Positions 3,137-52,152 of a stretch of DNA of 64,000 bases are shown here, one piece after another. Source of the stretch: Gammaproteobacteria bacterium. GTDB lineage: Bacteria; Pseudomonadota; Gammaproteobacteria; SZUA-140. The stretch is from assembly GCA_015488555.1 (NCBI GenBank), contig WFNO01000066.1, positions 1,842-65,841 on the forward strand, written 5' to 3'. Made by a program: the position numbers and the translations under genes. Numbering within the stretch: the stretch's first letter is position 1; every line of letters starts with the position of its first letter. The notes beneath the pieces are model-generated. The model had not been told where the DNA came from. It searched no databases and saw only the letters and a program-made list of their open reading frames with translations.

Positions 3137-3440
3137 CCCGCCTTTCGTCTCCCCGATTTTCTTCTCGTTTTCTCCGGTTTCCTACCGCTTGCACTCGGTT
3201 TACCTGGAATGAGTGTTCGATGAACGGCTTGCCCGGGATTCTGTACAACGCGTGTCAATTTAACACCCCTCCCGGAAGCATGTCCAGTTATGCGGAATTC
3301 AGGGCCTGTTCGGCGCAGTTCGTGGCGTGTTGATCACCCTATGGCATTCCAGCAGCGCGCCGGCCAAGGCGTACGTCCGTTGGGGAAGGCACTGGAAGGG
3401 TTCGGAAAGGCCAGGCGGGAGAGAATCGAAATGAGAATGA

Positions 3441-6031: not shown

Positions 6032-6159
6032 GTCAGCATGAAGATCGATGGAGGCCTCTTGGGCGCGGGGAAAACCGGAACAGGCCGGTTATAGCGCAAT
6101 CGGCCACCGCTCCTCCAGGACACAAGTCACATTCCGTGAATCGATTCGTCGCAGTCGCC

Positions 6160-6489
6160 TCAGACCGGCGGACGGGTCTCCGCGTCCATCCAGTCCAGAT
6201 AGGCCTTGAGTCCCGCCTCCAGGGACAAGGCGATGATCTCCGGCACCTCATAGGGATGCAGCTCGCGGATGCGCGCCTCCAGGGACGGATAACAGGCCTT
6301 GCGGGTCTTGATGAGCAGGAGGCACTCGCTGGCCATCTCGCGCCGCCCCTGCCAGTGAAAGATGGACGTCAGGCCCTTGACGATGTTGACGCAGGCCGCC
6401 AGGCGCTCGTCCACCAGTGCCTCGGCGATGCGTTCCGCCGAACCATCCTCGGGACAGGTGCACAGTACCAGGCAATGGCGCTCGCTCAT
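6160..6489 (-). CDS. cutA: Divalent-cation tolerance protein CutA
   Basis: Internal Met gives 109 aa beginning MSERHCLVLCTCPEDG...IVKGLTSIFHWQG. cutA upstream of dsbD as in E. coli. The longer ORF-track extension is low-complexity antisense of fxsA. Confidence 0.85.
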   Translation of the reverse strand: MSERHCLVLCTCPEDGSAERIAEALVDERLAACVNIVKGLTSIFHWQGRREMASECLLLIKTRKACYPSLEARIRELHPYEVPEIIALSLEAGLKAYLDWMDAETRPPV

Positions 6490-6588
6490 GGATGGGGCCC
6501 TCTCCAGCATTGATCCAGCATCGATCCGGACATCGATCCCGCATCTTACCATCTCTGCAAAGGTGCAAAAATGGTATAGTGGGAGATC

Positions 6589-7077
6589 ATGAATTTCTTC
6601 CGTCTCCTGCTGGTCCTGTTCCTCACCGTCCCCCTGGTGGAGATCTATCTCCTCATCAAGGTGGGGAACTTCATCGGTGCCCTGCCCACCGTCTTCCTGG
6701 TAGTGTTCACCGCCGTGGTGGGCGTGGTGCTGCTGCGCCTGCAGGGCTTCGCCACCATGCACCGCGTACAGGCCATGCTGGCCCGGGGCGAGATCCCCGC
6801 CGTGGAGATGCTGGAAGGCGTGGCCTTGCTCGTCAGCGGAGCCCTGCTCCTGACGCCGGGCTTCTTCACGGACACCATCGGCTTCCTGTTGTTGGTGCCT
6901 CCCCTGCGCCGGCGTCTCATCCTGTGGCTCATCGAACGCAGTTTCTTCGGCGGCATGCCGCCCGGTCCTCCTCCCGGTCCTCCTCCCGGTCCTCCTCCCG
7001 GAGCCCGTCCGGATTCCCGGGCCGGATCCCACGACCCGCGCACCATCGAGGGCGAGTTCTGGCGGGACCGGGACTGA
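6589..7077 (+). CDS. fxsA: FxsA-family cytoplasmic membrane protein
   Basis: 162 aa with two N-terminal TM helices and the FxsA core LLVPPLRRRL. SD GGGAGA lies upstream. The C-terminus holds PPGPPPGPPPGPPPG. Confidence 0.8.
   Translation: MNFFRLLLVLFLTVPLVEIYLLIKVGNFIGALPTVFLVVFTAVVGVVLLRLQGFATMHRVQAMLARGEIPAVEMLEGVALLVSGALLLTPGFFTDTIGFLLLVPPLRRRLILWLIERSFFGGMPPGPPPGPPPGPPPGARPDSRAGSHDPRTIEGEFWRDRD
6961..6999. repeat. 12-bp tandem repeat (cccggtcctcct, about 3.3 copies) encoding (PPGP)n in the FxsA tail
   Basis: Seen directly in the sequence. Approximate coordinates. Confidence 0.8.
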
Positions 7078-7164
7078 GGACAGGGAACGGAGGTCGGAGG
7101 ACAGAAAGGGAAGGCGCGATATTACAGCCTTTGAATTCCGCTCTCTGTCCTCCGTCTTCTGCCC

Positions 7165-9078
7165 TCAGTCCTCCGCCCTCCGAGCCCGTAGACCATTGGC
7201 CACCGCCAGCAGCTCGCTGGCCTCGTGCACCAGCACGGCGAAGGTCACCGAGATGAAGCCACCCACACCGGCGGGGATGAGCACCATGAGCACGGCGATG
7301 GAGAAGACGATGTTCTGCAGGCTCACCCGGCGCGCCTTGCGCCCCAGGCGCATGGCCTCCAGGAGCTTGGCCAGGTCGTCGGCCATGAGAGCGATGTCCG
7401 CCGCCTCGATGGCGGCATCGGTGCCCGCCGCGCCCATGGCCACGCCGCAGGTGGCGGCGGCCAGGGCCGGGGCGTCGTTGACGCCGTCGCCCACCATCAG
7501 GACCGGGCCCTCCCGGCCCAGGGCCTCCACGGCCGCGACCTTGTCTTCGGGCCTGAGGCCGGCGCGCACGTCGTCGATGCCCAGTTGCCGGGCGATGCGC
7601 CGCGCCGTGGCCTCGTTGTCTCCGGTGAGCATCACGGTACGAATCCCCAGCGCATGCAGGCCGGCGATCACCTGCGGGGCGTTCTCGCGCAGCACGTCCT
7701 GCAGGGCGAGGATCCCGATGATACGCTGCCGGTTACCCACCAGGACTACGGTCTTGGCCTCTTCCTGCCGGCGGCGGATGATCTCCGTCCAGGGCGAGAG
7801 GTCGAGTCCCAAGGACTCGAACAGATCGGGCTTGCCCAAGTACCAGACGGTGTCGCCCTCCCGGCCCTGGATGCCTGCGCCGGTCAGGGCCTGGACATCA
7901 CGCATGCCGCGAGGCGGGATGCCTTGTTCCTCGGCCCGTTGCCGGATGGCCCGGGCCAGGGGATGCTCCGAGTACTGCTCGAGCCCGGCGGCAATGGCCA
8001 GCAAGGCGGCTTCGTCGCCTTCGACGGCCGACACGTCGGTGACCCGCGGCCTGCCGTAGGTGAGCGTGCCGGTCTTGTCGAAGGCGATGGTGCGCACCTG
8101 GCCGAGGTGTTCCAGATGGGCGCCGCCCTTGATGAGGATGCCGCGACGCCCGGCGCCAGCGATGCCTGCGGACATGGCGATGGGCAGGGAGATGACCAGG
8201 GCGCAGGGGGCGGCGGCCACCAGCAGCACCACCGCCCGCTCGCTCCACCAGACGGTATCCAGGCCCAGCAGCCAGGGCAGGAGTAGCATGGCCAGGGCGG
8301 AGGCCAGCACCGCCGGGCTGTAGCGCCGTCCGAAACGTTCCATCCACAACTGGGCCCGGCCCTTCTGCTCCTGGGCCTCCTCCACCAGATGGATGATGCG
8401 CGCCAGGGTGTTGTCGGCGAAGCCCGCCGTGGCCTCCACGGTGAGCACGCCCTGGCCGTTGATGCTGGCTGCGAACACCTTGTCGCCCGGCCCCTTGTCC
8501 ACCGGCAGGGATTCGCCCGTCACCGGTGACTCGTCCAGGCTGGATTCGCCTTCGAGGATCACGCCGTCGGTGGGCACCGATTCGCCCGGGCGCACGACGA
8601 AACGATCTCCGGGCTGGATGGTGTCGGCGGGCACGGTGACGGTCTTGCCGCCGTCCACGAGCCGGTGCGCCGTCTTGGGCGCCAGATCCAACAAAGCGCG
8701 GATGGCGCGGCGTGTGCGGGCGAAGGTCAGCTCCTCCACGCCCTCGGCGAAGGCGTACAGCACCACCAGTGCCGCGGCCTCCTCCCACAAGCCGAGAATA
8801 CCGGCGCCGAGGGTGGCCGCCCCCATGAGGATCTCGATGCCGACGGCCCGTTCGCGGAACAGATCCTCGAGGCCTTCCCGCGCCCAGTACCAGGCCCCCA
8901 GCGGGATGGCCAACCAGTAGGCGGCCATCTCCAGAGATTCCGGAATCAGACCGGCACGCCCGCCCGCGTAGGCCCCCAGGGCCAGCAGGCCCGCCAACAA
9001 GGCGTTACGCAGGGGCGGAAAGCGCCACCAGGGCCCTGCAGCGGCCGTTTCGCCGGTGCTGCAGCCGTCCCGGGCCAT
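7165..9078 (-). CDS. Heavy-metal-translocating P1B-type ATPase. It has no N-terminal metal-binding domain and is probably a P1B-4-like Co/Zn/Cd exporter.
   Basis: 637 aa with DKTGTLT and GDGVNDAPAL. TM motif APC and a C-terminal TM containing HEASE. No CxxC/HMA domain. Confidence 0.88.
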   Translation of the reverse strand: MARDGCSTGETAAAGPWWRFPPLRNALLAGLLALGAYAGGRAGLIPESLEMAAYWLAIPLGAWYWAREGLEDLFRERAVGIEILMGAATLGAGILGLWEEAAALVVLYAFAEGVEELTFARTRRAIRALLDLAPKTAHRLVDGGKTVTVPADTIQPGDRFVVRPGESVPTDGVILEGESSLDESPVTGESLPVDKGPGDKVFAASINGQGVLTVEATAGFADNTLARIIHLVEEAQEQKGRAQLWMERFGRRYSPAVLASALAMLLLPWLLGLDTVWWSERAVVLLVAAAPCALVISLPIAMSAGIAGAGRRGILIKGGAHLEHLGQVRTIAFDKTGTLTYGRPRVTDVSAVEGDEAALLAIAAGLEQYSEHPLARAIRQRAEEQGIPPRGMRDVQALTGAGIQGREGDTVWYLGKPDLFESLGLDLSPWTEIIRRRQEEAKTVVLVGNRQRIIGILALQDVLRENAPQVIAGLHALGIRTVMLTGDNEATARRIARQLGIDDVRAGLRPEDKVAAVEALGREGPVLMVGDGVNDAPALAAATCGVAMGAAGTDAAIEAADIALMADDLAKLLEAMRLGRKARRVSLQNIVFSIAVLMVLIPAGVGGFISVTFAVLVHEASELLAVANGLRARRAED

Positions 9079-9081
9079 CTC

Positions 9082-9414
9082 TCAGCCCCGGGACGGCTCT
9101 TCCTCGTCGATGGGCAAGGCGGCAAGGAGGTCGCTCACGTAGATCCAGCCCGCCAGCGGCTGGCCCGTGCGCGCGTGCTCGCGGATGAGGCATATGGCTT
9201 CGTCCACCCGCTCGTCCGCGCACACCAGCTCCAGCTTGACCTCGGTGATGACCTTCTCTCCCACCTCCACCGAATAACCCTGTTCCTTGCTGTCCAGGGC
9301 CTTGAGCATGCCCTTGACGTCGATGATGGACAGGTTCTGATAGCCGGCGTCCTTCAGGGCGCGGATGACGTCGGCGATGCGGTTGCGATGCACGAAGGCC
9401 TTGATCTCCTTCAT
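9082..9414 (-). CDS. P-II (GlnB-like) family protein associated with the czc efflux genes
   Basis: About 110 aa from the internal ATG (MKEIKAFVHRNR...), which overlaps the czcA stop. The longer version uses a GTG at 9444. It has a GlnB-like beta-alpha-beta pattern. Confidence 0.65.
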   Translation of the reverse strand: MKEIKAFVHRNRIADVIRALKDAGYQNLSIIDVKGMLKALDSKEQGYSVEVGEKVITEVKLELVCADERVDEAICLIREHARTGQPLAGWIYVSDLLAALPIDEEEPSRG

Positions 9415-12400
9415 GAGCGTTTCTCCTTGCGGGTTTCGATCCACTCGTAGATGACGGGCAAGAGGATCAGGGTCAACAGGGTGGAGGTGAAGAGCCCGCC
9501 CACCACCACGGAGGCCAGCGGGCGCTGGGTCTCGGCCCCCACGCCGCTGGACAGCAGCATGGGGATGAGGCCGAGGATGGCCACGCTGGCCGTCATCAAC
9601 ACCGGCCGCAGTCTGAGCTCGGCACCCTTGCGCACCGCCTCACTCACCGACAAACCCTTCTCCCGCAGCTCGTTGATGAAGCTGATGAGTACGATGCCGT
9701 TGAGCATGGCCACGCCGAAGACGGCGATGAAGCCGATGGCCGAGGGCACCGACAGGTACTGGCCGCTGATGTACAGGGACACCAGCCCGCCGATGGTGGC
9801 GAAGGGCACGTTGGCGATGATGAGCGTGGCGTATTTCACTGAATTGAAGGCCGTGTACAGCAGCACGAAGATGAAGAAGATGGTGAGCGGCACGATGATG
9901 GACAGGCGCTTCAGGGCGCGCTGCTGGTTCTCGAAGGCCCCGCCCCATTCGATCCAGTAGCCCGGCGGCAGCTCGATCTCTTGTTCGATTAGGGCATCGG
10001 CCTCCTTGACGAAACCGTCCACGTCGCGGCCGCGCACGTCCATCTGGATCACGGCATAGCGCTGCAACTGCTCGCGGCGGATGAAGGAATAGCCCTCCGC
10101 CACCTCCACCTCAGCCACCCGTTCCAGGGGGATGAGGGCGCCATCGGCGGTGCGCAGCGGAATCTTGCGAATAGCCTCCACGGAGGATTTGGAGGCATCG
10201 TCCAGGCGCGCCGTGATGTCGAAACGCCGCACGCCGTCCAGCAACGTGGTCACCGGCTCGTTGCCGATGCCGTTGCGCACCACGTCCAGCACCTCGTCGG
10301 CGTTCATGCCGTAACGGGCCAACTGCTCGCGGTTCACGCGGACGCGGATCTGGGGCTTGCCCACGTTGGCCTCCAGGGAGAGATCGGCCACCCCCGGTAC
10401 CCGGGCGATGACATCCTTGATCTTCTGGCTCAAGCGGTCCAGTTCCCCCAGATCCTCGCCGTAGAGCTTGGCGGCCAGGGTGGCGCGCACCCCGGAGATC
10501 AGCTCCTCCACCCGCATCTGGATGGGCTGGGTGAAGGCGATCACCGCCGTGGGCACCGTCTCTTCCAGGGTCTCGCGCATGGCGTCGGCGATCTCCTCGA
10601 TGGATCGGTTCCACGTCTCCTTGGGCGTGAGGCCGGTGTAGATCTCCATATAGTTGACGTCAGCGGTCTCACCCTTCTCGGCGCGGCCGATCATGGCGAT
10701 GGTGGTGGTCACCTCCGGAAACTCCCCCAGGGCTTGCGCGATCTTGTTGGAGATCTCGATGGACTCCTCCAGCGAGGTGGAAGGGATGGACGTGACCCGC
10801 CACATGATGGAACCTTCCTGGAGCTGGGGCATGAATTCCTTGCCCAGCAAGGGAAACAAGGCCAAACTGCCCGCCAGTAACAGACCCGCGGCGCTCACCA
10901 CCACCTTCTTGTGGTTCAAGGACCAGGCCAACACAGGCAGATAGCCACGCTTGATCCCGGCCACCAGCCAGGTGTCGCGTTCCGCCTTGGGCTTGAGCAC
11001 CAGGGCCGCCAGCACCGGGATGAGGGTGAGGGTGAGAATGAGCGAGCCGGCCATGGCGAAGCTGATGTTGAAGGCCATGGGCTTGAAGAGCTTGCCCTCC
11101 AGACCCTCGAGGGTGAACAAGGGCAAAAAGACGACGATGATGATGAGAATGGCAAAGGCGATGGGACTGGCCACTTCGCGCGCAGCGGTGAGCACCGCGG
11201 CGGTACGGTCCACTTTCTCGCCCCGCTCGCGCCACTCGGCCATGATGCGAAAGGCGTTCTCGGTCATCACCACGGCGCCGTCCACCATCATGCCGATGCC
11301 GATGGCGAGCCCCGCCAGCGACATCAGGTTGGCGGAGATACCGGCCTCTTCCATGAAGATGAAGGCGATGAGCATGGCCAAGGGCAGGGCGGCGATGACC
11401 ACGATGGCCGAGCGCAGCTCCCCCAGGAACAGGAACAGCACGATGGCCACCAGGATGGAGCCCTCCACCAGGGCCCTGACCGCGGTCTGCACCGCCTTCT
11501 CCACCAGGTCGGTGCGCTCGTAGACGGGATTGAGTTCCACCCCCTCGGGCAGGGCGTCGCGCACCACCTCCACCTTTTCCTTGACCGCATCCACCACGTT
11601 CTTGGCGTTGGTGCCGATGCGCGACAGGGCCATGCCCATCACCACTTCGCGGCCGTCACGGGTGACGGCGCCGAAGCGCAGGCCCGGTGCCTGGCGGATG
11701 GTGGCCACGTCGCGCAGGTACACGGGGGTGCCGTCCTGGACCTTGACCACGATGTTGCCGAGATCGGTCTCGTCCTGCACCAACCCCAGGCCACGCACCA
11801 GATACTGCTCGGGCCCCAGATCGATGTACTGGCCGCCCACCTGGCGGTTGTTGTTTTCCAGGACCGTGATGACATCGCGGAAGCTCAGATCGTACTTGAT
11901 GAGCTTGAGGGGTTCGATCACCACTTGGTACTGGCGTTCCTGCCCGCCCCAGGAGAGCACGTCGTCCACGCCCGGCGCAGTGCGCAGGATGAGGCGCACG
12001 GTCCAATCCTGCAGGGTGCGCAGATCCATGTCCGTGATGGCATCCTTGAGTTGCTCGTCGGCCCGCTCCAGGGTGTACCAGAACACCTGCCCCAGCCCAG
12101 AGGAATTGGGACCCATCTCCGGCGTGCCGTAGCCTTCGGGGATGCGGTCGGCCACCTCCAGCAGGCGTTCCATCACCAGGCGGCGCACGAAATAGATGTC
12201 CATGTCGTCCTCGAAGTACACCGACACGTAGGACAGCCCGAACAGACTCACGGAGCGGATCTCCTTGACCCCTTGCAGGCCAGCCATGCCGGACTCCACC
12301 GGGAAGGTGATGAGCTGTTCCACGTCCTCCGCCGCCAACCCCGGCGACTCTGTATAGATGTTGACCTGCACCGGCGTGACGTCGGGAAAGGCGTCGATGG

Positions 12401-21626: not shown

Positions 21627-24452
21627 ATGTCCGAGGCCACGCGCCTGAGTCCCGAAATCCACCTGGGTCGAATTCTCGACCTGGCCTTCGACGAAATCTA
21701 CGTCTTCGATGCCCACACCCTGCGCTTCATCGACGCCTCGCGCGGGGCCCTGGACAACCTGGGTTACACCCTGGCGGAACTCACCCGGCTCACCCCTTTC
21801 GACATCAAGCCGGACATGACCCCGCAGTGGTGGCAGGAACTGGTACAGCCCTTGTGGAACAGCACGCGCAAACTGGCCGTGTTCCAAACCCGCCACCAGC
21901 GCAAGGACGGCAGCTGCTATCCGGTGGAATTGCGCCTGCAACTGCTGCAGGAATCAACGCCGCCGGTGTTCATCGCCATCGTCCACGACATCACCGAACG
22001 CCAGCGCAACGAAGACGCCCTGCGGGCCTCGGAGCGGCGCTACCGGGATCTCATGGAACAGTCGCCCTTCGGCATCCAGATCCACGCCCCGGACGGCCGC
22101 ATCCTCATGGTCAACTCCGCCTGGGAACGGATCACCGGCGCCCGCCTGGAAGATATGCGCGACTACAACATCCTGCAGGACCGCCAACTGGCCGAGCTGG
22201 GCATCCTGCCCTATGTGGAGCGGGCCTTCCAGGGCGAGGCCGTGGTCACCCCGCCGGTGCGATACGACACCCGCAAGACGCCGGAGGTGCCGGTGGACAG
22301 CGGCACCATCTACACCCGCACCCATCTCTATCCCATCAAGGACGAGGCGGGCAGGGTGCAGGAAGTCATTCTCATGCACGAGGACGTCAGCGATCAGATG
22401 GCCGCACAGCAGGCCCTGGCGGAGTCTCAGCGCATGCTGCGGCTGGTGCTGGACACCATTCCCGTGCGCGTGTTCTGGAAGAACCGCCAGTCGCGCTATC
22501 TGGGCTGCAACCGCCTGTTCGCCGCCGACGCCGGTCTCGACCATCCCGACGAAATCATTGGCAAGGACGATCACCAGCTCAACTGGCAGGAACAGGCGGA
22601 ACGCTTTCAGGCCGACGACCGCGCAGTGATAACCAGTGGCGAGGCCCGCCTCAACTACGAGGAAGCCCAGAGTTGGCCCGACGGTACCACCCGTATCCTG
22701 CGCACCAGCAAGATCCCCCTGCGTAACGAACGAGACGAGGTCTTCGGCGTGCTGGGTTGCTACGAGGACATCACCGAACGCAAGGCCGCCGAAGCGGCCT
22801 TGCGCGCCAGCGAACAACGCTTCCATACCCTCGCCAAAATCTCACCGGTGGGGATCTTCCGCACCGATGCCGAGGGCGGCTGCATCTACGTCAACGAGCG
22901 CTGGTGCGCCATGGCCGGCATGAAGGCCCAAGAGGCGGTGGGCAACAGCTGGGTCCGGGCCTTGCACCCCGAAGACCGGGAACGGGTCCTTCGTGAATGG
23001 CAAGAGGCTGCCGCCCGGCGCTCCTTCCACACCGAATGCCGCTTCCAGCGGCCCGATGGCACCGTCACCTGGCTCCTGGCCCAGGCGGACGCGGAATGCG
23101 ACAGCGAGGGCCGGGTGATGGGCTATGTGGGCACCATCACCGACATCACCGAACGCAAGCGCGTGGAAGAGGCCATCCAGCACATCGCCAGCGGCGTCTC
23201 CGCCCAGACCGGCGAGGCCTTCTTCCATTCCCTGGTCATCCATCTGGGCAAGCTCTTCCAGGCGGACCATGCCTTCGTGGGCCTCTACCAGGAACCGCAC
23301 CAGGTGCGCACCATCGCCGTCTGCACCCGCGGCCGCATCGCCGGCAATTTCGTCTATCCGTTAGAGGGTACCCCTTGTGCCCAACTACTGAATCGAGAGA
23401 CCTGCTACTATCCCCACGGCGTACGCCAGTTGTTCCCACGTGATCGCCTGCTACAGGAGCTGGCCATCGAGAGCTATCTGGGCACGCCCGTCATGGATCG
23501 TGCAGGGCGCCCCCTGGGGTTGATTGTCATTCTCAACTCTCGTGCCCAAGAAGACACTGCCTGGATCCATCCTATCCTAGAGATCTTCACTGCCCGCACC
23601 GCTGCCGAGCTGGAACGCCTGCAGGCCCTGGCTGAATTGGAACGCCATCGGGATTCCCTGGAAGACAGGGTACGAGAGCGCACCGAAGAGGTACGCCAAC
23701 AGGCCCGTATCATCGAGCAGGAACGCAGCGCGCTCGCCCACGCCAACCGGGAACTGGAATCCTTCGCCTACTCCGTCTCCCATGACCTGCGCGCGCCCCT
23801 GCGGGCCATCAATGGTTTTGCCCAGGCCCTGGAAGAAGATTACGGGCACCATCTGAACACTGAGGGACGCGACTACCTGCGCCGCATCCGCCGCGCCTCG
23901 GAACGCATGGGCCAGTTGATCGACGACCTGTTGATGCTCTCGCGGGTCTCGCGCCATCAGCTACGGCGGCAGCGCGTGGATCTGAGCGCCCTGGCACAGG
24001 AGGTGGCCGCCGAACTCCGGCAACTGGAGCCCCACCGTCGGGTGGCGCTGGAATTGGAATCCCATCTGACGGCCACCGGCGATCCCCTGCTCCTGCGCAT
24101 CGTGCTGGAGAACCTGCTCGGCAATGCCTGGAAATACACCCGCAAACAGCCGCACCCCCGGGTGCGCTTCGGCAGCTGCACTACCCCACAAGGCGAAACG
24201 GCCTTCTACGTACAGGACAATGGCGCTGGCTTCGACATGCGTTATGCCGACAAGCTCTTCGTCGCCTTTCAGCGCCTGCATCACCTGCACGAATACGAAG
24301 GCACCGGTATCGGCCTGGCCACGGTGGCTCGCATCGTCCAACGGCATGGCGGACGGGTATGGGCCGAGGGTGTCTGTGACCGGGGTGCCACCTTCTATTT
24401 TACCTTGAACGCCCACGACGGGGATGGCGAACATCCCGAGGAGCCACCATGA
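21627..24452 (+). CDS. Multi-PAS/PAC and GAF sensor histidine kinase
   Basis: 941 aa with repeated PAS/PAC modules (ITERK repeats), a GAF-like region, the HisKA box SHDLRAPL and HATPase motifs (DNGAGF, GTGIGLA). Confidence 0.9.
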
Positions 24453-24880
24453 AGAACAAGATCATCTTGCTGGTAGAGGACAATCCGGACGACGAGGCAC
24501 TCACCCTGCGGGCCCTGAAAAAAAACAACATCGCCAACGAGGTGGTGGTGACCCGGGATGGCGTGGAAGCCCTGGAATATCTCTTCGGCGAGGGACGCTT
24601 CAGCGGCCGCGACCCCGCCCACCGGCCGGAAGTGATCCTGCTGGACCTCAAACTGCCCAAACTGGATGGCCTGGAAGTACTCAGACGCATGCGCGCAGAC
24701 GAGCATACCCGCCGCATTCCCGTGGTCATTCTCACCACTTCCTCCGAGGAGCAGGACATCGCCGCCAGTTATGATTTAGGAGCCAACAGCTATATCCGCA
24801 AGCCGGTGGACTTCCAGCAGTTCCTGGAGGCCGTGCGCCAGCTGGGATTGTACTGGTTGCTGCTCAACGAAACGGTCTGA
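24449..24880 (+). CDS. Single-domain response regulator (CheY-like receiver)
   Basis: 143 aa, [10 protein letters not shown]...[12 protein letters not shown]...K. The start overlaps the kinase stop (ATGA). Confidence 0.9.
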
Positions 24881-25066: not shown

Positions 25067-26884
25067 ATGAAACCTATAAAGTTCAGAAAACTGACCCTGC
25101 GCCAGATAACCCGCATCGGCCTGCTCGTGACCCTGAGCGTCGCCACACTGGTGGCCGTGCTGGTCTATGCCCGAACCATGATGCTGAGCGATCGCTTGTT
25201 GCATACCGTGGAACAGGCACAGGTTGCCGTCGCGCTCAGCAACAGCATTCATCACGACCTGGAAGAATCCGGTGCCTATTTAATCGAACATGTCCTGAGC
25301 GGCACGCCGGAAAGCCGTACGGAACTCCTGCATCATCTGGGGCTTATGGAGGAGAAATTAAAATTCCTGAACAGCCAGCGCCTGCCGGAGGAACTGGTCA
25401 CGCTGACCGAGCGTTTGAGCCGCGGCATCCTGGAAATCAAGGAGCTGTTACAGGAGCTGCACCCTGCTGGCGAGTCCGCCGTCCCATCCTTCAACCAAGA
25501 TTTCGTCCGCGAGCGGGTGCGCCCCCTGCTAATGGAACTCAATAACACCAATAACGAACTGGACCGGGCCGTATGGGACGTCAAGGAGATCCTGTTCGCT
25601 GAAATCATGGCCACGGCCCGCCGCGACGCCCTGTGGCTGGTCTTCATGATCCTGGGGGGAGCTTTGAGCGTGGTCTTGTTCAACGCTTGGCTCAATCGCC
25701 ATATCCTGCGGCGAATCCGAGAGGTGATCGCCGCTATGCAGGGCATCGCCTCGGGCACCGGGCAACTCTCCTATCGTCTCGACGCCAATGGACACGACGA
25801 GATGGCCGAACTGGCTCGGGGATTCAATCGCTTCGCCGACAAGATCCAACATGTCATCCATCTGGTGATGGAATCCTCCTCGGTGCTGGCCAAGGAAGCG
25901 GCAGTCATGTCGGAGACCAGCCGCAAGACCAAGGAGGGCGCAGAACGCCAAAAGGGAGAGATCGAAGACATCGCTTCGGCGGTAAGCGACATGACCCAGT
26001 CCGTAGAGACGGTAGCACAAAGCGCGGCCGCAGCCGCCGATGCCACCGAGCACGCCAGCGGTGGGGCGGGCAACGGGCGGGAGACGGTGGAACACACCAT
26101 CGCTGCCATCGAATCTCTGTCCGACGACATCCATCTCGCGGCCGATTCCATTCAGCACTTGGTGCGGGAGAGCAAGAACATCGACAGCGTCCTGGTGGTG
26201 ATCAACGAAATCGCCGATCAGACCAACCTGCTGGCCCTGAACGCTGCCATCGAAGCAGCCCGGGCTGGTGAACAGGGACGGGGCTTCGCGGTAGTGGCGG
26301 ACGAGGTCCGTAGCCTGGCCATCCGCACCCAGGAAGGGACCCAGGATATCAAGCAGAAAATAGATCAATTCCGTAGTTGTGCCGTGGAAGTGGCTCGGCT
26401 CATGAACCAGGGCCGGGACAAGGCCCAGGAAGTAGTGCAGCAAGCCGCCCTGGCAGGCGAGGCCCTGCGCGCCATCCACGATTCGGTGGCCACCATCACC
26501 GAGATGACCCGCAACATCGCCCGTGCCACCGACCAGCAATCCTCCGTGGTGGGCGAAATCCGGCAAAACATCGTTTCCATCAGCCGCATCGCCAGCGAGA
26601 CCTCCGAGAAGGCGGTGCAGACCTCGGCCTCCAACCACGAATTGAGTCTCATGGCCATGCAACTGCGCACCCTGGTGGAGCAGTTCCTGCTAGAAAACGG
26701 CCCGGGGCCAGCGGATCCGGCCACGGGCACACACGGACTGGAAGCAAAAGGGGATAAAACAACGGACGGCGGCATAGCGGCAGGCGGAGACGGCTCGCAA
26801 CCGCCAGCTCCCAAGGCGCCGGGCCTAACGGGCGCTGGCCCCGCACCCGCCGGGGGGGCGGGCGGAGAAGTCACCCTGTTCTGA
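25067..26884 (+). CDS. Methyl-accepting chemotaxis protein. Two TM helices flank a periplasmic sensor region of about 170 aa; HAMP and MCP signalling domains follow.
   Basis: 605 aa with the conserved signalling-domain core ...[32 protein letters not shown]. Confidence 0.9.
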
Positions 26885-27028
26885 GACGACCTGCGGGCCC
26901 TCTAGCAGGCTCTACTCACGCGGCGCGATCCGGTGTTGAAAATAGCCTCGAAATGCTCATTTACTAGTTTAAAACTGCGCTTTCTCGGCTATTTTCGTCT
27001 TGTCTCGCGCTCGCCCGATGAGCGCACT

Positions 27029-27349
27029 TCAACTGCCTGCTAGGGCGAGATACACCACGCCCTCTTCCACGCGCACCGGATAAGTGCGGACGCAACCCAC
27101 GTCCGGCGCCACCGCCTGGCCGCTCTCCAATTCCAGTACCCAGTTGTGCAGAGGGCAGGTCACGCGCCGGTCGTGCACCAGTCCCTGTGACAAGGGCCCG
27201 CCCTTGTGGGGACAGCGGTCTTGCAAGGCAAAAACCTCGTCACAGGCGGTGCGGAACACCGCGATGTCACCGGCCGCCGTACGCACTACCCGCGAGCCCT
27301 GGCGGGGAATGTCGTCCAGCCGCCCGATTTCCTTCCATGCCTCGCTCAT
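27029..27349 (-). CDS. nirD: Nitrite reductase small subunit (Rieske-type) NirD
   Basis: Internal Met gives 106 aa (MSEAWKEIGRL...CPHKGGPLSQG...CPLH) with an SD GGAG. It lies downstream of nirB. Confidence 0.85.
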   Translation of the reverse strand: MSEAWKEIGRLDDIPRQGSRVVRTAAGDIAVFRTACDEVFALQDRCPHKGGPLSQGLVHDRRVTCPLHNWVLELESGQAVAPDVGCVRTYPVRVEEGVVYLALAGS

Positions 27350-27390
27350 CACCGCTCCTTCGGCCTGCATCTCTCCACACCCGTCCATCG

Positions 27391-29829
27391 TCAACTCACC
27401 AGCTTCAGGGGAATGTACTCGCGCCGGCGCTGTGCATCCCGCACCTGCTCGGCCCAGGGATCCACCTGGGCGTGGCGCTGGGACTCCAGGAAGCGGGCAT
27501 GCAGGGCCCGCCGCCCCTCCGGATCCTCCACGATGCGCTGCTTGACATAACCCAACCCCACGCGCTCGATCCAGTGGGCGGTGCGCTCCAGGTAATGGGC
27601 CTCCTCGCGATAGAGCTGCAGGAAGGCGCCGCAGTATTCCTTCACCTCCTCCGCTGTATTCACCTTGCACAGCAGGTCGGTGGCCCGCACCTTGACGCCG
27701 CCGTTGCCACCCACGTGCAACTCCCAGCCGGACTCCACCGCCACCACGCCGAAGTCCTTGATGGTGGCCTCGGCACAATTGCGCGGGCAGCCGGACACTG
27801 CCATCTTGACCTTGTGCGGTGTCCACGATCCCCAGCACATCTTCTCCAGTTCGATGCCCATGGTTGTAGAGTCCTGGGTGCCGAAGCGGCACCATTCCGA
27901 TCCCACGCAGGTCTTCACCGTACGCAGGGCCTTGCCGTAGGCGTGGCCGGAAACGAAACCCGCCTCGTTGAGCGCGCGCCAGATGGCAGGCAGGTCCTCC
28001 TTCTTCACTCCCAGCAAATCGATGCGCTGGCCGCCCGTGATCTTCAGCGTGGGCACCTGGAAGCGCTCGGCCACATCGGCGATGGCACGCAACTCAGCAG
28101 GCGTGGTCACTCCGCCCCAGATGCGCGGCACCACGGAATAGGTCCCGTCCTTCTGGATGTTGGCGTGGACCCGCTCGTTGATGAAACGAGATTGCGGGTC
28201 GTCCACCACCTCGCCAGGCCAGGTGGAGAGCAGGTAATAGTTGAGCGCCGGCCGACACACGTGGCAGCCGTCGGGCGAACGCCACTCCATGTAGTCCATG
28301 ACCGCGTGGATGCTGGTGAGATGCTGCTGGCGGATCACCCGGCGCACCTCGTCGTGGGTGTGATCGGTACACTTGCACAGAGGCTTCTCGGCGGGGGTCT
28401 GGGAATAGTCGTTGCCCAGGGTATCCATGAGAATCTGCTCCACCAGCCCGGTGCAGGAACCGCAGGAAGAAGAGGCCTTGGTGTGAGCCCGCACGTCGTC
28501 CAGGGTGAACAGTCCCTTGTCGGTGATGGCCCGGACGATGTCCCCCTTGCAGACCCCGTTGCAGCCGCATACTTCCATGTCGTCGCTCAGGGCGCTGGCG
28601 GCGTTCTGTCCGCCATGACCGGAATCCCCGAGATGGGCCTGGCCGAACAGCAAGTGGTCACGAATGTCGGCGATATTGGTGCCGTCGCGCATGAGCTGGA
28701 AATACCAGCTGCCGTCCATGGTGTCGCCGTAGAGCACGGCCCCACGAATGCGGTCGTCCTTGAGCACCAGCTTCTTGTAGATGCCCTGGCTGTCGTCGCG
28801 CAGGACAATCTCCTCGCTGTCGGCATCGCCATGGAAATCGCCGGCGGAGAACAGGTCGATGCCCGTGACCTTGAGCTTGGTGGAGGTCACCGTCCCCTCG
28901 TAGCGGGCATAACCCAGGCGGGCCAGGTGGTTGGCGCACACCCGCGCCATCTCGAACAACGGCGCCACCAAGCCATAGGTTCGGCCGCGGTGCTGCACGC
29001 ACTCACCCACGGCATAGATCCTGGGATCGAAGGTCTGCAGGGTATCGTTGACCACCACGCCACGCTCGCAATAGAGACCGGCGGCACGGGCCAGCTCGAT
29101 GTTGGGCCGGATGCCCACCGCCATCACCACGAGGTCCGCGGGAATCTCGGTGCCGTCCTTGAAGCGCACCGCGCGCACCTCTTCCTCCCCCAAAATGGCC
29201 TCAGTCTCGGTTTCCATGAGAAAAGTGAGTCCCTTCTCCTCCAGGGCCCGCTTGAGCAGGGCACCTGCGGGTTTGTCCAGCTGGCGCTCCATGAGGGTGT
29301 CCATAAGGTGTACTACGGTCACCGTCATGCCGCGTTCCTTGAGACCGTTGGCGGCTTCCAACCCCAACAGTCCGCCGCCGATCACCACCGCATGCCTGCC
29401 ACACCGGCTGGCCTCCAGCATGGCGTTGACGTCGTGGATGTCGCGGAAGGTGATCACGCCCTCCAGGTCTCTACCCGGCACCGGCAGAATCATGGGATTG
29501 GAACCGGTGGCCAAGAGCAGACGGTCGTACGGTGCCTCGGTACCATCCTCGGCCACCACCCGGCGCCGGCGGCGGTCGATGGCCACCACCTTCTTGCCCG
29601 CGTGCAGCGTGATCCCGCGGGATGCGTACCAATCTAAGTCGTTGAGCATGATGTCGTCCAGGGTCTTCTCGCCCGCGAGCACCGGTGAGAGCAAGATGCG
29701 GTTGTAGTTGCCGAAGGGCTCGGCACCGAAGACAGTGATGTCATACAGATCCGGCGCCAGCTTGAGCAACTCCTCCAAGGTGCGCACACCCGCCATCCCG
29801 TTACCGATCATGACCAGCCTTTCTTTCAT
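27391..29829 (-). CDS. nirB: NAD(P)H-dependent assimilatory nitrite reductase large subunit NirB
   Basis: About 812 aa from ATG MKERLVMIGNGMAG. The ORF track began 4 codons earlier at a GTG. Contains FAD/NAD, BFD-like Fe-S and sirohaem domains. Confidence 0.9.
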   Translation of the reverse strand: MKERLVMIGNGMAGVRTLEELLKLAPDLYDITVFGAEPFGNYNRILLSPVLAGEKTLDDIMLNDLDWYASRGITLHAGKKVVAIDRRRRRVVAEDGTEAPYDRLLLATGSNPMILPVPGRDLEGVITFRDIHDVNAMLEASRCGRHAVVIGGGLLGLEAANGLKERGMTVTVVHLMDTLMERQLDKPAGALLKRALEEKGLTFLMETETEAILGEEEVRAVRFKDGTEIPADLVVMAVGIRPNIELARAAGLYCERGVVVNDTLQTFDPRIYAVGECVQHRGRTYGLVAPLFEMARVCANHLARLGYARYEGTVTSTKLKVTGIDLFSAGDFHGDADSEEIVLRDDSQGIYKKLVLKDDRIRGAVLYGDTMDGSWYFQLMRDGTNIADIRDHLLFGQAHLGDSGHGGQNAASALSDDMEVCGCNGVCKGDIVRAITDKGLFTLDDVRAHTKASSSCGSCTGLVEQILMDTLGNDYSQTPAEKPLCKCTDHTHDEVRRVIRQQHLTSIHAVMDYMEWRSPDGCHVCRPALNYYLLSTWPGEVVDDPQSRFINERVHANIQKDGTYSVVPRIWGGVTTPAELRAIADVAERFQVPTLKITGGQRIDLLGVKKEDLPAIWRALNEAGFVSGHAYGKALRTVKTCVGSEWCRFGTQDSTTMGIELEKMCWGSWTPHKVKMAVSGCPRNCAEATIKDFGVVAVESGWELHVGGNGGVKVRATDLLCKVNTAEEVKEYCGAFLQLYREEAHYLERTAHWIERVGLGYVKQRIVEDPEGRRALHARFLESQRHAQVDPWAEQVRDAQRRREYIPLKLVS

Positions 29830-29877
29830 GAATGCTTCCACTCCGCAGCTTTCGTTGTTCCACTGTCTCCAGAGTTA

Positions 29878-29893
29878 TGCAATGATCGTGCCG
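29878..29893 (-). promoter_or_regulatory. Candidate sigma54 (-24/-12) promoter for nirBD
   Basis: Minus strand reads CGGCAC-GATCA-TTGCA with exact GG-N10-GC spacing, about 38 nt upstream of the nirB ATG. An IHF-like site ATCAAaaaaTTA lies just upstream at about 29893-29908. Confidence 0.5.
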
Positions 29894-29904
29894 ATCAAAA
29901 AATT

Positions 29905-29924
29905 AAACAAATATCTATTTGTTT
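29905..29924. promoter_or_regulatory. 20-bp palindrome AAACAAATA-TC-TATTTGTTT upstream of the nirB promoter. Candidate operator or bending site.
   Basis: Perfect 9-bp arms. It overlaps the IHF-like AT-rich tract in the nirB/narK divergent region. Confidence 0.4.
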
Positions 29925-30223
29925 AGCATGAACTTTCTCAATTCTCTCGGAGACACCCCGCGCTTCGCCCCCGCCAAGCTGCATCAGATTGGTGCGCCTT
30001 GGCGCCCTGCCATGAGCTGCTTTGACTGGATGAGATCAATCCCACTCGCTTCGCCCCTGAATTCGAGCCGGCCGCCGTACGATTCTTGCAGAAACCATAC
30101 TCCCGCCTCGAGACTCGGTGGGAGTATCACTACATCTCTGCCAGCATCCCACACTGCGCACTCCTGGTGCACCCTGACAACGCGAAATCTAAAAAACCCC
30201 TGCACATCAATATCTTAATAACT

Positions 30224-30239
30224 TGGCCTAATTATTGCA
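30224..30239 (+). promoter_or_regulatory. Candidate sigma54 (-24/-12) promoter for the narK-type transporter gene
   Basis: TGGCC-TAATTA-TTGCA with GG-N10-GC spacing, about 60 nt upstream of the GTG start. Confidence 0.5.
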
Positions 30240-30311
30240 TAAGGGCTTTGAAAACAGGGTCAGCGGTATCTTTGCCGTGCCATCCCATACTTGGTAGCGA
30301 AGGAGACGGTA

Positions 30312-31799
30312 GTGAGCAGTTCCCACGACAAGCCCAGCGAGAAATTCAAACTGTGGTCCTTCAGCGGCAGGGTTCGGATCCTACACCTGACTTGGTTCGC
30401 TTTCTTCCTCAGCTTCTTCGTGTGGTTCAACCACGCCCCCTTGCTGGGCGCCATCCGGGAATCCCTGCAGCTTAGCGAGCAGGAAGTAAAGGCCCTGCTC
30501 ATTCTCAACGTGGCCCTCACCATTCCCGCACGCATCGTAGTGGGCATGCTGGTGGACCGCTTTGGCCCGCGCATCCTGTTCGCCGCTCTGCTCAGCATCG
30601 CCGCCGTCATCTGCTTCGGCTTCGCCTTTGCCGAGGACTATCAACAGATGGCTATCCTGCGTTTCCTGCTGGGCTTCGTGGGCGCGGGCTTCGTCATCGG
30701 CATCCGCCTCATTGCCGAATGGTTCCCGGCCCGGGAGGTTGGCCTGGCGGAAGGGATCTATGGCGGTTGGGGCAACTTCGGCTCCGCCGCCGCGGCCATC
30801 ACCCTGCCCACCCTGGCCCTGGCCTTCGGCGGCGAGGACGGCTGGCGCTATGCCATCGCTACCACCGGTGTCATCGCCTTGCTCTACGCCCTGGTGTTCT
30901 ACCGTCTGGCCCGCAACACCCCCAAAGGCTCCACCTATTTCAAACCCAAGAAGAGCGGCGCCCTGGAGGTGACCAGCCCCGGCGACTTCTTCCTCTATAT
31001 CATCATGTGCCTGCCGCTCTACGTCGCCTTGGCTTTGCTGGTATGGAAACTCGGACCGGAACAGCTCGCCATGCTGGGCACCGCCCTGACCTACACGCTC
31101 TACGGCCTGCTGGCAGTGTTGTTCCTCTATCAAGCGATGCATATCCACCGCGTCAACCGCCACGTCTTCGAAAAACCGGTGCCGGAGTTGGAACGCTACA
31201 AGTTCAAGCAAGTAGCCATTCTCAACCTGGCCTATCTGGTCACTTTTGGCTCGGAGCTGGCAGTGGTTTCCATGCTGCCCTTGTTCTTCCAGGACACCTT
31301 CGGCCTGTCGCTGGTGATGGCAGGCCTGCTGGCCTCCGGCTATGCCTTCATGAATCTGGTCTCGCGTCCCACCGGCGGCCTGTGGAGTGATCGTTTCGGC
31401 CGCCGCCGCACCCTGGCCCTGTTGCTGGCCGGTCTGGTGGTAGGTTATCTGCTCATGAGCCAGATCCACAGCGGCTGGCCGGTGGCGCTGGCGGTGGTGG
31501 TGGCCATGCTCTGCTCTTTCTTCGTACAAGCGGGAGAAGGAGCGGTGTTCGCCATGGTACCCCTGGTGAAGCGACGCCTCACCGGCCAGATCGCCGGCAT
31601 GACCGGGGCTTACGGCAACGTAGGTGCTGTGCTCTTCCTCACCGTGCTGTCCTTCGTCTCCCCTCAGACCTTCTTCCTGGTGATCGCCGGGATGGCCTTG
31701 CTGGTGCTGGTGGCGGTATGGTTCTTTCTCGACGAACCCAAGGGACACATGGTGGAGACCCTGCCCGACGGCACAGTACAGATGATCGAAGTGAATTGA
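30312..31799 (+). CDS. narK: Nitrate/nitrite transporter (MFS, NarK/NasA family)
   Basis: GTG start preceded by AAGGAG gives [15 protein letters not shown]... The 12-TM MFS body has NNP-family motifs. The ORF track started 7 codons earlier at a TTG. Confidence 0.85.
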
Positions 31800-31867
31800 T
31801 TCGGAAGGGACCGCCCGCTGGCTGCTATGGTTCCCAGGAGTGCATGGATCCCCCGTCCCCGCCACGC

Positions 31868-33574
31868 ATGAATACCGCTCTCGCCATCGACGCCGGCCAA
31901 TACAGCAGCGCCGGCCTCAAGGAGAACAACGAGGACGCCTGCGGCATCCGCATCCCGGACGAGCCCTTGCTGACCACCAAGGGCATCGCCGCCGTGATCG
32001 CCGACGGCGTGAGCAGCAGCGCCGGCGGCCGCGAGGCCAGCGAGACTTGCGTGCAGGGCTTTCTCAACGACTACTACAGCACTCCCGAATCCTGGGTGGT
32101 GAAGACCTCTGGCCAGCGGGTACTGGGGGCGCTCAACCGCTGGCTGCACGGGCAAGGCCAGCACAAATACCGCTCCGCCCACGGCATGATCACCACCTTG
32201 AGCGCCCTGGTGATCAAATCCTGCACCGCCCATCTGTTCCACGTGGGCGACACGCGCATCTACCGCCTGCGCAACGGCGAATTGGAATGTCTGACCCGCG
32301 ACCACCAATTGTGGTCGGCGGGCGAGAAGACCTTTCTGTGCCGCGCCATGGGCGCCGACACCCATGTGGAGATCGACTACCGCAGCCTGCCCGTGGAGGC
32401 CGGCGATCTGTTCCTGCTCACCACTGACGGCGTCCACGGCTGGCTGGCCGCGCGCGACCTCCGGGCCCTGCTCGAGCGCCACCGGCAACATCCGGAACAG
32501 GCTGCACGCATGCTGGTGCAGGAGGCCCTGGCGCGGGGCAGCGAGGATAATGCCACCTGCCAGGTGGTCGCCGTGCGCAGCCTCCCTCAACTAGACGAAG
32601 AGGCCTTCTACCGCCAGTTGGTGGAACTGCCCTTCCCACCGCCCCTGGAAGACGGCATGGTGCTGGACGGCTACCGCATCCTGCGCGAACTACACGCCAG
32701 CAATCGTACCCAGGTCTATCTGGCGCTGGACACCGAGACAAGGGAAAAAGTGGTGCTCAAAACCCCCTCTGTGAACTACGAGGACGATGCCGCCTACATT
32801 GACCGCTTCCTGCACGAGGAATGGGCGGGACGGCGCATCCACAATCCCCATGTCCTGCGGGTACTGGAACCGCGGCGGCGGCGGCGCTTCCTCTACTACG
32901 TCACGGAATACGTGGAAGGTCAGACCTTGCGCCAGTGGATACACGACCATCCACTGCCTAGCCCAGCCGAGGTGCGCCCCCTGGTGGAACAGATGGCTGC
33001 CGGCCTGCGCGCCTTCCACCGCCAAGAAATGATCCACCAAGACCTCAAGCCCGAGAACATCCTCATCGACACACATGGCACGGTAAAACTCCTGGATTTT
33101 GGTTCCACACGCATCGCCGGCATCCAGGAAATCGCCTCACCCTTGCACCACGACCATCCCTTGGGCACCCTGGATTATGCTGCCCCCGAATACTTTCGCG
33201 GCTATCCGGGCACGTCCCGTTCGGATCTCTATTCCCTGGGGGTCATCACCTACGAAATGCTCACCGGCCACCTGCCCTATGGCGGACCCCTGTCGGCACG
33301 CAACCTAAAACGCGTCCGCTATCGTCCCGCCGGGCGGCACAATCCGGAAGTGCCGCTCTGGATGGACAAGGCCTTGCAGAAGGCCGTGCATCTCCAGCCC
33401 CAGCGGCGCTACGAGAGTCTGTCCGAGTTCACCTACGATCTATCCCATCCCAATCCCGCCTTTCTCCAGGAGGATGTCCCGCTCCTAGAACGCGATCCCA
33501 CTGCCTTCTGGCGTGCCCTGGCCCTGCTGGAAGCCCTGGCGCTATTGGCGCTGCTCTTGTACCTGGCACACTGA
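31868..33574 (+). CDS. Bifunctional PP2C-type Ser/Thr phosphatase / Ser/Thr protein kinase
   Basis: N-terminal PP2C fold (MNTALAIDAGQYS...ADGVSS...EDNATC) and C-terminal Hanks kinase (HQDLKPENIL, DFG, APE). An alternative ATG at 31844 has a tight AGGAG. Confidence 0.8.
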   Translation: MNTALAIDAGQYSSAGLKENNEDACGIRIPDEPLLTTKGIAAVIADGVSSSAGGREASETCVQGFLNDYYSTPESWVVKTSGQRVLGALNRWLHGQGQHKYRSAHGMITTLSALVIKSCTAHLFHVGDTRIYRLRNGELECLTRDHQLWSAGEKTFLCRAMGADTHVEIDYRSLPVEAGDLFLLTTDGVHGWLAARDLRALLERHRQHPEQAARMLVQEALARGSEDNATCQVVAVRSLPQLDEEAFYRQLVELPFPPPLEDGMVLDGYRILRELHASNRTQVYLALDTETREKVVLKTPSVNYEDDAAYIDRFLHEEWAGRRIHNPHVLRVLEPRRRRRFLYYVTEYVEGQTLRQWIHDHPLPSPAEVRPLVEQMAAGLRAFHRQEMIHQDLKPENILIDTHGTVKLLDFGSTRIAGIQEIASPLHHDHPLGTLDYAAPEYFRGYPGTSRSDLYSLGVITYEMLTGHLPYGGPLSARNLKRVRYRPAGRHNPEVPLWMDKALQKAVHLQPQRRYESLSEFTYDLSHPNPAFLQEDVPLLERDPTAFWRALALLEALALLALLLYLAH

Positions 33575-34058
33575 ATCGGAAAGAGGCCAAAACGAAGGGA
33601 AGCCGGATCACGTCTCGATGCTTCCGTCTGGATTAAACTCCACAATCGAATCGGGCTAATCCCGATACAGAAATCCACCTCCTGTAGCATCCCGTGTGCG
33701 CGGGCACCCGAACCAAAGCGCCTTTACGCAAAGCATGGTATCTCCTTATGGAATGGGCTTTTGCAATCGTCAGGTCGATCCTGCCGGCTCGGCTACCTGC
33801 ATTGGAACCAGGACCAGATAAAAGTCCTTACGATTAAAGCCTCATTCAGCGGGCCTCTGGACGGACGGCCTGTTAGGCGCGCCGATGTCGGCATGGCCCG
33901 AGCTATGCCAAGGAGGCGCAACACCGCCGCCGCGGCCGTGGCACACGCCCCCTCATTCTCACCCAGGCGCCCGCCATCCCGGCCGAATATGCCGGTAAGA
34001 CCTGTACTCCACCGCAAGATCACCCGGCACGCGGCCGTGGGAAATCTTGAGATAGGTT

Positions 34059-35975
<1,917 letters not shown>

Positions 35976-45885: not shown

Positions 45886-45889
<4 letters not shown>
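44822..45889 (-). CDS. hemE: Uroporphyrinogen decarboxylase
   Basis: Internal [22 protein letters not shown]..., overlapping the gltD stop. Confidence 0.95.
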
Positions 45890-52015
<6,126 letters not shown>

Positions 52016-52152
52016 GTTTTTCGTCAACGACTCACCTGAACGTGTTCCGGCCCTGAAAACGCACGCGAGCGTCCTCCGTGCCGGGATTTTTTGCTCGTCT
52101 ATTCAAACGGTTGGGCCCCTCCTCGGAGGGAAACGGCGGCGCAAGGGGTGAG

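Follow-up and report, generated by a model that had tools for sequence, protein, structure and literature searches.

A bifunctional PP2C phosphatase/Ser-Thr kinase gene paired with a nitrate/nitrite transporter gene: a candidate switch of NarK

The closest described systems in Gram-positive bacteria and mycobacteria are the PknB-PstP, PrkC-PrpC and Stk1-Stp1 pairs, in which the two opposing enzyme folds of a Ser/Thr kinase and a PP2C phosphatase are encoded together. Each of these pairs consists of two proteins; the kinase carries a PASTA sensor on the outside of the cell and its Gly-rich loop is canonical, and the targets belong to the cell wall and cell division. The gene described here encodes the same two opposing folds but in one chain, which has no extracellular domain and is predicted to be tail-anchored. 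It lies at 31868..33574 on the + strand of a 64,000-nucleotide stretch of DNA from a gammaproteobacterium of the SZUA-140 lineage (assembly GCA_015488555.1, contig WFNO01000066.1; the whole stretch is called the window), directly behind a narK/nasA-type nitrate/nitrite transporter gene of the major facilitator superfamily (MFS). We propose, with a probability of about 0.5, that the enzyme is a dedicated on/off switch of the NarK transporter, anchored in the membrane by its tail and co-transcribed with narK from a sigma-54 promoter.

A related gene order has been reported in pseudomonads. In Pseudomonas sp. UW4 the order is nasST-nasA-ppkB-nasDEC-cobA, with the Ser/Thr kinase gene ppkB directly after nasA as in the window (PMC3596284), and PA1782 is an uncharacterised protein, one of the three Ser/Thr kinases of P. 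aeruginosa (PMC8560001). These reports bear out the statement of the initial annotation that a similarly placed kinase gene exists in some pseudomonads. The two genes are putative counterparts of the window gene, likened to it by their position as given in the literature. Proteins of the corresponding RefSeq family are collinear with the window protein over at least 96% of its length. Unlike the Pseudomonas nasA-kinase-nirBD-nasC operon, the pair in the window is divergent from nirBD and its NarK is a form with 495 residues and 14 hydrophobic segments. The literature search returned only passing mentions and no functional study of the family, so the remark that its role in nitrate assimilation is undefined also stands.

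The parallels with GlnK-AmtB, AceK and the eukaryotic systems are analogies in logic. GlnK-AmtB likewise consists of a nitrogen transporter and a private post-translational regulator in a two-gene operon induced by nitrogen limitation; however, GlnK blocks the channel by binding, under the control of uridylylation and 2-oxoglutarate, the transporter is not phosphorylated, and the two systems share no related proteins. AceK, encoded in aceBAK, is a bifunctional kinase/phosphatase in a metabolic operon with one dedicated target, but it is a soluble protein of another architecture in which one active site serves both reactions, and its target is an enzyme. In eukaryotes, nitrogen transporters are subject to reversible Ser/Thr phosphorylation of their cytoplasmic loops and tails, with a PP2C phosphatase as the eraser in several cases. 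Examples are CIPK23 and ABI2 acting on NRT1.1, the PP2C CEPH acting on NRT2.1, and Npr1 acting on Ynt1 and Mep2. The window NarK belongs to the same nitrate/nitrite porter family as NRT2. The eukaryotic writer and eraser differ in being separate soluble proteins under calcium or peptide-hormone control, and as a system they are not homologous to the one described here. An analogy to the control of eukaryotic nitrate transporters has been drawn for Pseudomonas sp. UW4 as well (PMC3596284).

The pairing of the two genes was found in both directions. Starting from the kinase/phosphatase gene, an open reading frame (ORF)-based tally covered the 65 genome loci that have 1.6 kb or more of upstream sequence. 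In 55 of them narK is the gene directly upstream, in the same orientation, and tblastn placed it there in four more loci in which the ORF caller had failed (L001, L021, L025 and L059). The spacer between the two genes is shorter than 100 bp in 40 of the 55 loci. Starting from NarK, 80 metagenome loci were fetched, of which 70 had at least 700 bp of downstream sequence; the kinase/phosphatase gene follows narK directly in 65 of these 70 and lies within 2 kb in 2 more. The nirBD genes adjoin the pair in only about half of the loci, and many narK-linked loci have no nirB within 8 kb. The next commonest neighbour is a nitrate reductase gene, beyond nirD, and no gene is conserved downstream of the kinase/phosphatase gene in the related loci. 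An apparent NarK-kinase fusion in L005 was rejected as an artefact of the ORF caller, the two genes being in different frames. In another locus (L011:6456-11168) a second narK (488 residues) lies convergent right after the enzyme gene, which is flanked by two NarK genes. A Thiotrichaceae contig (L077:1521-4666) has a gene for an NtrC-like sigma-54 activator, the kinase/phosphatase gene and then murJ, the activator gene taking the place of the transporter gene.

The family is also found behind transporters of other folds. Relatives with 35-52% identity to the window protein lie directly behind formate/nitrite transporter (FNT) genes on annotated plasmids and chromids of seven organisms, among them Methylobacterium nodulans, Azospirillum oryzae and Cupriavidus pinatubonensis. 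The FNT-linked copy of Ideonella dechloratans comes after nirBD and a nitrate/nitrite-sensing protein, that of Pseudoalteromonas is near nirBD-cobA and a nitrate regulatory protein, and those of Acinetobacter and Psychrobacter adjoin cyanase (cynS) on plasmids (L082:6410-9725, L088:3087-6167). The cyanase-adjacent modules may serve the uptake of cyanate or nitrite rather than nitrate assimilation. A Sulfitobacter plasmid (L092:275-2445) also has the kinase/phosphatase gene followed by cynS, with the upstream gene cut by the start of the record, and mobilisable plasmids, down to a size of 17 kb, carry some of the cyanase-linked copies. In Methylocystis the order is nirB-nirD-nitrate reductase-MFS transporter (420 residues), followed by the kinase/phosphatase gene. 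The most distant relatives, at about 29% identity, keep the architecture and the tail and adjoin genes for an APC-family permease and glutamate-synthase-like (GlxBCD-type) proteins. In one of them, Burkholderia sp. PAMC 26561 (L090:938-5635), the 29%-identical protein follows an APC amino-acid-type permease beside a glutamate-synthase-like gene; in the other, Acidithiobacillus caldus (L089), the copy has insertion sequence (IS) elements on both sides and is without the DFG motif. These neighbourhoods hint that the module also serves importers of other nitrogen sources.

Two uncultured gammaproteobacterial genomes, L012 (Chromatiaceae, 2337-9692) and L066 (Methylococcaceae, 2540-9725), carry the FNT and NarK modules side by side. 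Each transporter has its own kinase/phosphatase paralogue, and the siblings are only 46% and 49% identical to each other. The FNT-linked copies are 53-58% identical to alpha- and betaproteobacterial FNT-linked proteins, and the NarK-linked copies share 53-62% identity with the window protein. A single shared soluble target would hardly account for one paralogue per transporter, which is easily accommodated if each enzyme works with its own transporter. In a distance tree the proteins are grouped by type of partner and not by host class, and the FNT-linked proteins of alpha-, beta- and gammaproteobacteria fall together. Three features make up the pattern: the two genes are paired almost obligately in both directions, the transporters are of three folds, and there is a paralogue for each transporter. 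No prior description of this pattern was found in the literature searched.

The window narK (30312..31799, + strand) encodes 495 residues from a GTG at 30312 with a ribosome-binding site, AAGGAG, at 30300. The ORF lister places the start at a TTG at 30291, and the alignment with homologues starts at about residue 16 of this long ORF. The protein scores 341.6 bits with TIGR00886 against a cut-off of 311.7 and resembles E. coli NarK only distantly (E 1e-7). Its 14 hydrophobic segments include two extra predicted helices between the canonical helices 6 and 7, at residues 226-244 and 254-272, which are flanked by an invariant loop. In the metagenome set fetched via NarK, this 14-segment subtype almost always has the kinase/phosphatase gene directly downstream. 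The conserved loop after helix 6 (30915..30989, + strand; residues 202-226) is predicted to be cytoplasmic and is a candidate phospho-acceptor region. Of 56 family-linked NarKs, at least 90% have Ser or Thr at positions S207, T208, T221 and S222, and G206, T208, Y209, F210 and S222 are invariant in a second alignment (A3). The C-terminal tail of NarK is also conserved. In the FNT partners conserved Ser/Thr residues are found in the N- and C-terminal ends, which are taken to face the cytoplasm, as in the general FNT topology. The NarK loop, including its EVTS motif, and the C-terminal tail are candidates only for the sites of phosphorylation.

The narK-to-kinase/phosphatase spacer (31800..31867, + strand) is 68 nt long, or 44 nt if the enzyme starts at an alternative ATG at 31844. 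A terminator scan found no + strand site between the two genes or after them, and a consensus scan found no sigma-70 promoter. A sigma-54-type promoter, TGGCCTAATTATTGCA (30224..30239, + strand), is predicted 88 bp before the narK start, within the 470-bp divergent region between nirB and narK. It is an exact match to TGGC-N7-TTGCW; one strict match alone is weak evidence, with 1.56 expected per 64 kb. Of 134 related loci, 65 have the strict motif ahead of narK on the coding strand, whereas none of 134 control stretches of equal length taken from inside narK has it. In 60 of the 65 motif-bearing loci it lies 31-87 bp before the narK start. In P. aeruginosa the expression of nasA (PA1783) and nirBD drops 16- to 650-fold in ntrB/ntrC mutants (PMC7214821). 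Expression of the narK unit under nitrogen limitation is well supported by this comparison of loci, and we infer that narK and the kinase/phosphatase gene are co-transcribed under sigma-54 control.

The kinase/phosphatase gene is a single ORF of 568 codons plus stop, from the ATG at 31868 to the stop ending at 33574. The in-frame ATG at 31844, with AGGAG ahead of it, would give 576 residues, eight more. The 100%-identical database protein (P0001) has 576 residues, which corresponds to the 31844 start; the alignment of homologues begins at the Met encoded at 31868. From its N-terminus on, the protein consists of a PP2C phosphatase, a Hanks-type Ser/Thr kinase and, at the C-terminus, a single transmembrane helix. 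An AlphaFold2 model built from 118 homologues has a mean predicted local distance difference test score (pLDDT) of 86.5 and a predicted template modelling score (pTM) of 0.79, and a Foldseek search of the PDB returned no solved structure with both domains. By sequence comparison the gene is confirmed as real, its similarity and its invariant catalytic residues being far above chance. The initial description of a PP2C and Hanks-kinase fusion with a hydrophobic tail, placed directly behind a nitrate transporter gene, agrees with the Pfam results, fold matches, hydropathy and the TIGR00886 score.

The PP2C (PPM) domain (31880..32587, + strand; about residues 5-240) matches Pfam PP2C_2 at residues 19-211 with 60.9 bits against a cut-off of 24. 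Its fold resembles those of PppA, tPphA and PstP (Foldseek against the PDB; TM-score 0.81-0.86). Alignments of 21 and 118 homologues show no variation at the metal-binding sites D23, D46-G47, D187-G188 and D227-N228, and the four metal-binding Asp residues of motifs I, II, VIII and XI are retained in all clades examined. The linker to the kinase domain contains the motif LPFPPPL (32627..32647, + strand; residues 254-260), in which P255-F256-P257-P258 are invariant in the 118 close homologues. The motif decays in the FNT-linked and distant clades.

The Hanks-type kinase domain (32660..33448, + strand; about residues 265-527) matches Pfam Pkinase at residues 281-514 with 134.6 bits against a cut-off of 31.7, and its fold resembles that of M. 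tuberculosis PknB with a TM-score of up to 0.85 (Foldseek against the PDB). Residues K298, E317/E318, D392, K394, N397, D410-F411-G412 and E441 are invariant in the alignments of 21 and 118 homologues. Several of them lie in the catalytic loop H390-Q-D392-L-K394-P-E-N397, the D410-F-G motif and the A439-P-E motif. The catalytic loop has HQD (non-RD) in the window protein and HRD in some relatives. The activation loop is modelled with low confidence by AlphaFold2. The Gly-rich loop, GxGxxG, is replaced at residues 275-284 by the glycine-free LHASNRTQVY. Therefore, the description of the kinase domain as complete holds for the invariant catalytic residues and fails for the Gly-rich loop. Within the replacement, Y284 never varies among the 118 homologues and H276, R280 and Q282 are each kept in 90% of them or more, so that HASxR(T/S)Q forms a conserved motif in place of the Gly-rich loop. 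No close relative has a glycine in this loop and the most distant clade has a single one. Because the replacement holds in every clade examined, the sequences indicate that the atypical P-loop is a family trait and not decay. More speculatively, and by analogy with the action of chloride on WNK kinases, a glycine-free, Arg-containing P-loop might make the kinase sensitive to a small anion or metabolite.

The protein ends in the juxtamembrane motif PLLERDPTAFW and a C-terminal transmembrane tail anchor (33479..33571, + strand; residues 538-568), which is predicted from hydropathy and from an AlphaFold2 helix at residues 544-567. The only hydrophobic segment above threshold is formed by the last 19 residues, 550-568 (Kyte-Doolittle 2.15), and among the 118 homologues the median hydropathy is 2.14 in the tail and 1.22 elsewhere. 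In all clades, the most distant included, the C-terminal end consists of ERNPxxFW and then some 20 hydrophobic residues. The protein is, by this prediction, a tail-anchored membrane enzyme that faces the cytoplasm. Pfam and hydropathy detected no sensor domain, extracellular part or PASTA repeats. The models of the Stk1/PknB PASTA kinase (NF033483; score 188.7 against 450) and of the Stp1/IreP phosphatase (NF033484; 113.5 against 230) were rejected as assignments, and no NCBIfam equivalog model reaches its cut-off for this protein.

A protein search with the window sequence returned 7,807 matches, and the best 120 of the 7,807 are about 560-580 residues long and at least 61% identical. Several of these best 120 bear the RefSeq name 'bifunctional protein-serine/threonine kinase/phosphatase', among them a Thiohalobacter protein with 65% identity over 96% of the length; FNT-linked plasmid copies with 35-52% identity over at least 95% of the length are so named as well. 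When representatives were clustered at 50% identity, most of the best 150 were collinear over the full length (about residues 3-566) and 560-610 residues long. When one genome per species was scanned, the family was found in at least 596 species-level genomes. The carriers include many Gammaproteobacteria (sulfur oxidisers, methanotrophs, Porticoccaceae, Cycloclasticus and Methylophaga), Zetaproteobacteria and one Nitrospira genome. Marine sulfur oxidisers, hydrocarbon degraders and, according to the literature, pseudomonads are also among the carriers. By these comparisons the family is large, old and already named in RefSeq, and the window gene is an ordinary member of it. The initial annotation's view of the fusion as an unusual regulatory device is not upheld given this family size, the existing name and the precedent of AceK.

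According to the proposed mechanism, nitrogen limitation would, through sigma-54 and NtrC, lead to joint transcription of narK and its private switch gene, and the enzyme would be inserted by its C-terminal helix beside the transporter in the membrane. The kinase half would then write, and the PP2C half erase, phosphate on the cytoplasmic parts of NarK, and uptake could be turned up or down within seconds according to the nitrogen state of the cell, faster than by transcription. Candidates for the input that would shift the balance between kinase and PP2C are a metabolite bound at the atypical P-loop or at the PP2C flap, or the transporter itself through its conformation. We infer the enzymatic activity, and the transporter as its substrate, from the conserved residues and the gene pairing. 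Several observations weigh against this mechanism. About 10-15% of family members are in unrelated neighbourhoods; eight such exceptions were inspected, one of them behind an NtrC-like activator gene, and the five that were placed in the tree nest within the NarK-linked clade, which suggests secondary relocation. The loop and tail motifs are also present in three NarKs that have no kinase/phosphatase gene beside them, so a tie of the motifs to the kinase is not supported and they may be structural. Only two positions, K394/R and G321/A, cleanly separate the NarK-linked from the FNT-linked proteins, and there is thus no obvious partner-recognition surface. The former is the catalytic-loop Lys (nt 33047-33049), which is Lys in 134 of 134 NarK-linked and Arg in 10 of 10 FNT-linked proteins, the comparison including L081-L084, L086, L088 and L093. 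A single family of enzymes would need to recognise transporters of three unrelated folds, and joint transfer of the two genes as one module could explain part of the grouping of the proteins by partner. The absence of the Gly-rich loop in every clade leaves the handling of ATP by the kinase, or even its activity, uncertain.

Some of these observations would also fit an enzyme that is merely co-expressed with the transporter and has a soluble target in nitrogen assimilation or in its control, for example NirB, nitrate reductase, a NasR/NasT-type regulator, PII or NtrC, or an enzyme for which the transporter is the sensor. A common target would agree with there being only two separating positions and with one family serving three transporter folds. 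The adjacency of nirBD in about half of the loci and the resemblance of the PP2C half to tPphA, the cyanobacterial phosphatase of PII, point the same way. However, the pairing stays with the transporter where nirBD is absent and in FNT and cyanase contexts, and no gene for a soluble partner is conserved in the neighbourhood. Keeping one paralogue per transporter, as two genomes do, would be needless for a shared soluble target, and the tail anchor is conserved in all clades. A soluble target is therefore an unlikely explanation, though one that keeps some weight. Among the substrates named in the initial annotation, comparative genomics favours NarK over NirB: the pairing persists without nirBD, involves FNT in other clades and, in two genomes, occurs once per transporter.

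The atypical P-loop raises the question of whether the kinase half is a pseudokinase or a self-directed module, that is, a nucleotide- or ligand-binding domain or an autophosphorylating timer, with PP2C as the only output. HASxR(T/S)Q in place of the Gly-rich loop in all clades, the low-confidence prediction of the activation loop and the lack of a sensor domain elsewhere in the protein would fit this. Such a role is improbable given that K298, E317/E318, D392, N397, DFG and APE are invariant or nearly so in about 120 close homologues and are largely kept in distant clades; this retention is the pattern of an active phosphotransferase, whereas true pseudokinases usually lose some of these residues. 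A further proposal, that the protein is an anti-phage defence kinase of the PD-T4-6 or MADS6 type which lies near nitrogen genes by chance, starts from PADLOC PD-T4-6 profiles that match residues 265-529 with up to 185 bits and from weak NCBIfam matches to MAD6 and PglW. These matches span the generic kinase domain only, their scores equal that of the match to PknB-type kinases, and they are far under the curated cut-offs (133.4 against 460 and 47.3 against 990). The fixed place behind nitrate/nitrite transporters and the sigma-54 promoter, in hundreds of species, are also not the context of a defence island. A defence function (PD-T4-6, MADS MAD6 or BREX PglW) was rejected on these sub-cut-off generic matches and the nitrogen-assimilation neighbours, and we regard it as extremely improbable. 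The preferred reading is still that of a switch dedicated to NarK. Its extension is put forward only tentatively: the family may be a general modular class of transporter-private switches in Proteobacteria and neighbouring groups, with one paralogue per importer and gating by reversible phosphorylation, for at least three unrelated folds (NarK-type MFS, FNT and APC permease).

The assimilatory nitrite reductase genes of the window are divergent from narK. The gene nirB (27391..29841, - strand) has a probable ATG at 29829 and scores 975.7 bits with TIGR02374, and nirD (27029..~27361, - strand) scores 105.9 bits with TIGR02378. Therefore, placement in a nirBD operon does not hold for this locus; narK and the kinase/phosphatase gene form their own two-gene unit, with nirBD on the opposite strand. 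A sigma-54-like element, CGGCACGATCATTGCA (29893..29878, - strand), was read from the sequence upstream of nirB. It has the form CGGCAC-N5-TTGCA, which fits the GG-N10-GC core and not the strict TGGC pattern, and is a candidate promoter.

On the 3' side of the kinase/phosphatase gene a 480-bp non-coding gap (33575-34058) is followed by a convergent speA. The gap has no Rfam match and no consensus terminator, and it folds no better than shuffled sequence. An Rfam scan of 26800-34300 gave a single sub-threshold match only, with no riboswitch or NasT-type leader. The window also contains the gene for an ammonium transporter of the 'marine subtype' (40530-39253, - strand) and gltBD (45886-52027, - strand). 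No assimilatory nitrate reductase, nasR, nasST or cobA was found in the 64-kb window, so either the nitrate reductase is elsewhere in the genome or the window NarK is mainly a nitrite importer. Beyond nirD, the + strand has genes for a multi-PAS/GAF histidine kinase (21627-24452), a stand-alone receiver protein (24449-24880) which overlaps the histidine kinase gene stop to start, and a methyl-accepting chemotaxis protein (25067-26884).

The pairing pattern turns a vague annotation into a testable hypothesis on the fast control of nitrate/nitrite uptake. If the proposed switch is wrong, the window gene is an ordinary member of a common, unstudied family. If it is right, control of nutrient transporters by Ser/Thr phosphorylation, which is established in plants and yeast, would extend to Gram-negative bacteria, and one of the three annotated Ser/Thr kinases of P. 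aeruginosa would have a function. Bacteria stop nitrate uptake within seconds of the addition of ammonium, and the literature search found no mechanism for this fast shut-off of NarK/NasA-type transporters. A modular class of transporter-private switches would, if it exists, provide the long-sought mechanism for the rapid ammonium shut-off of nitrate/nitrite uptake in heterotrophic bacteria.

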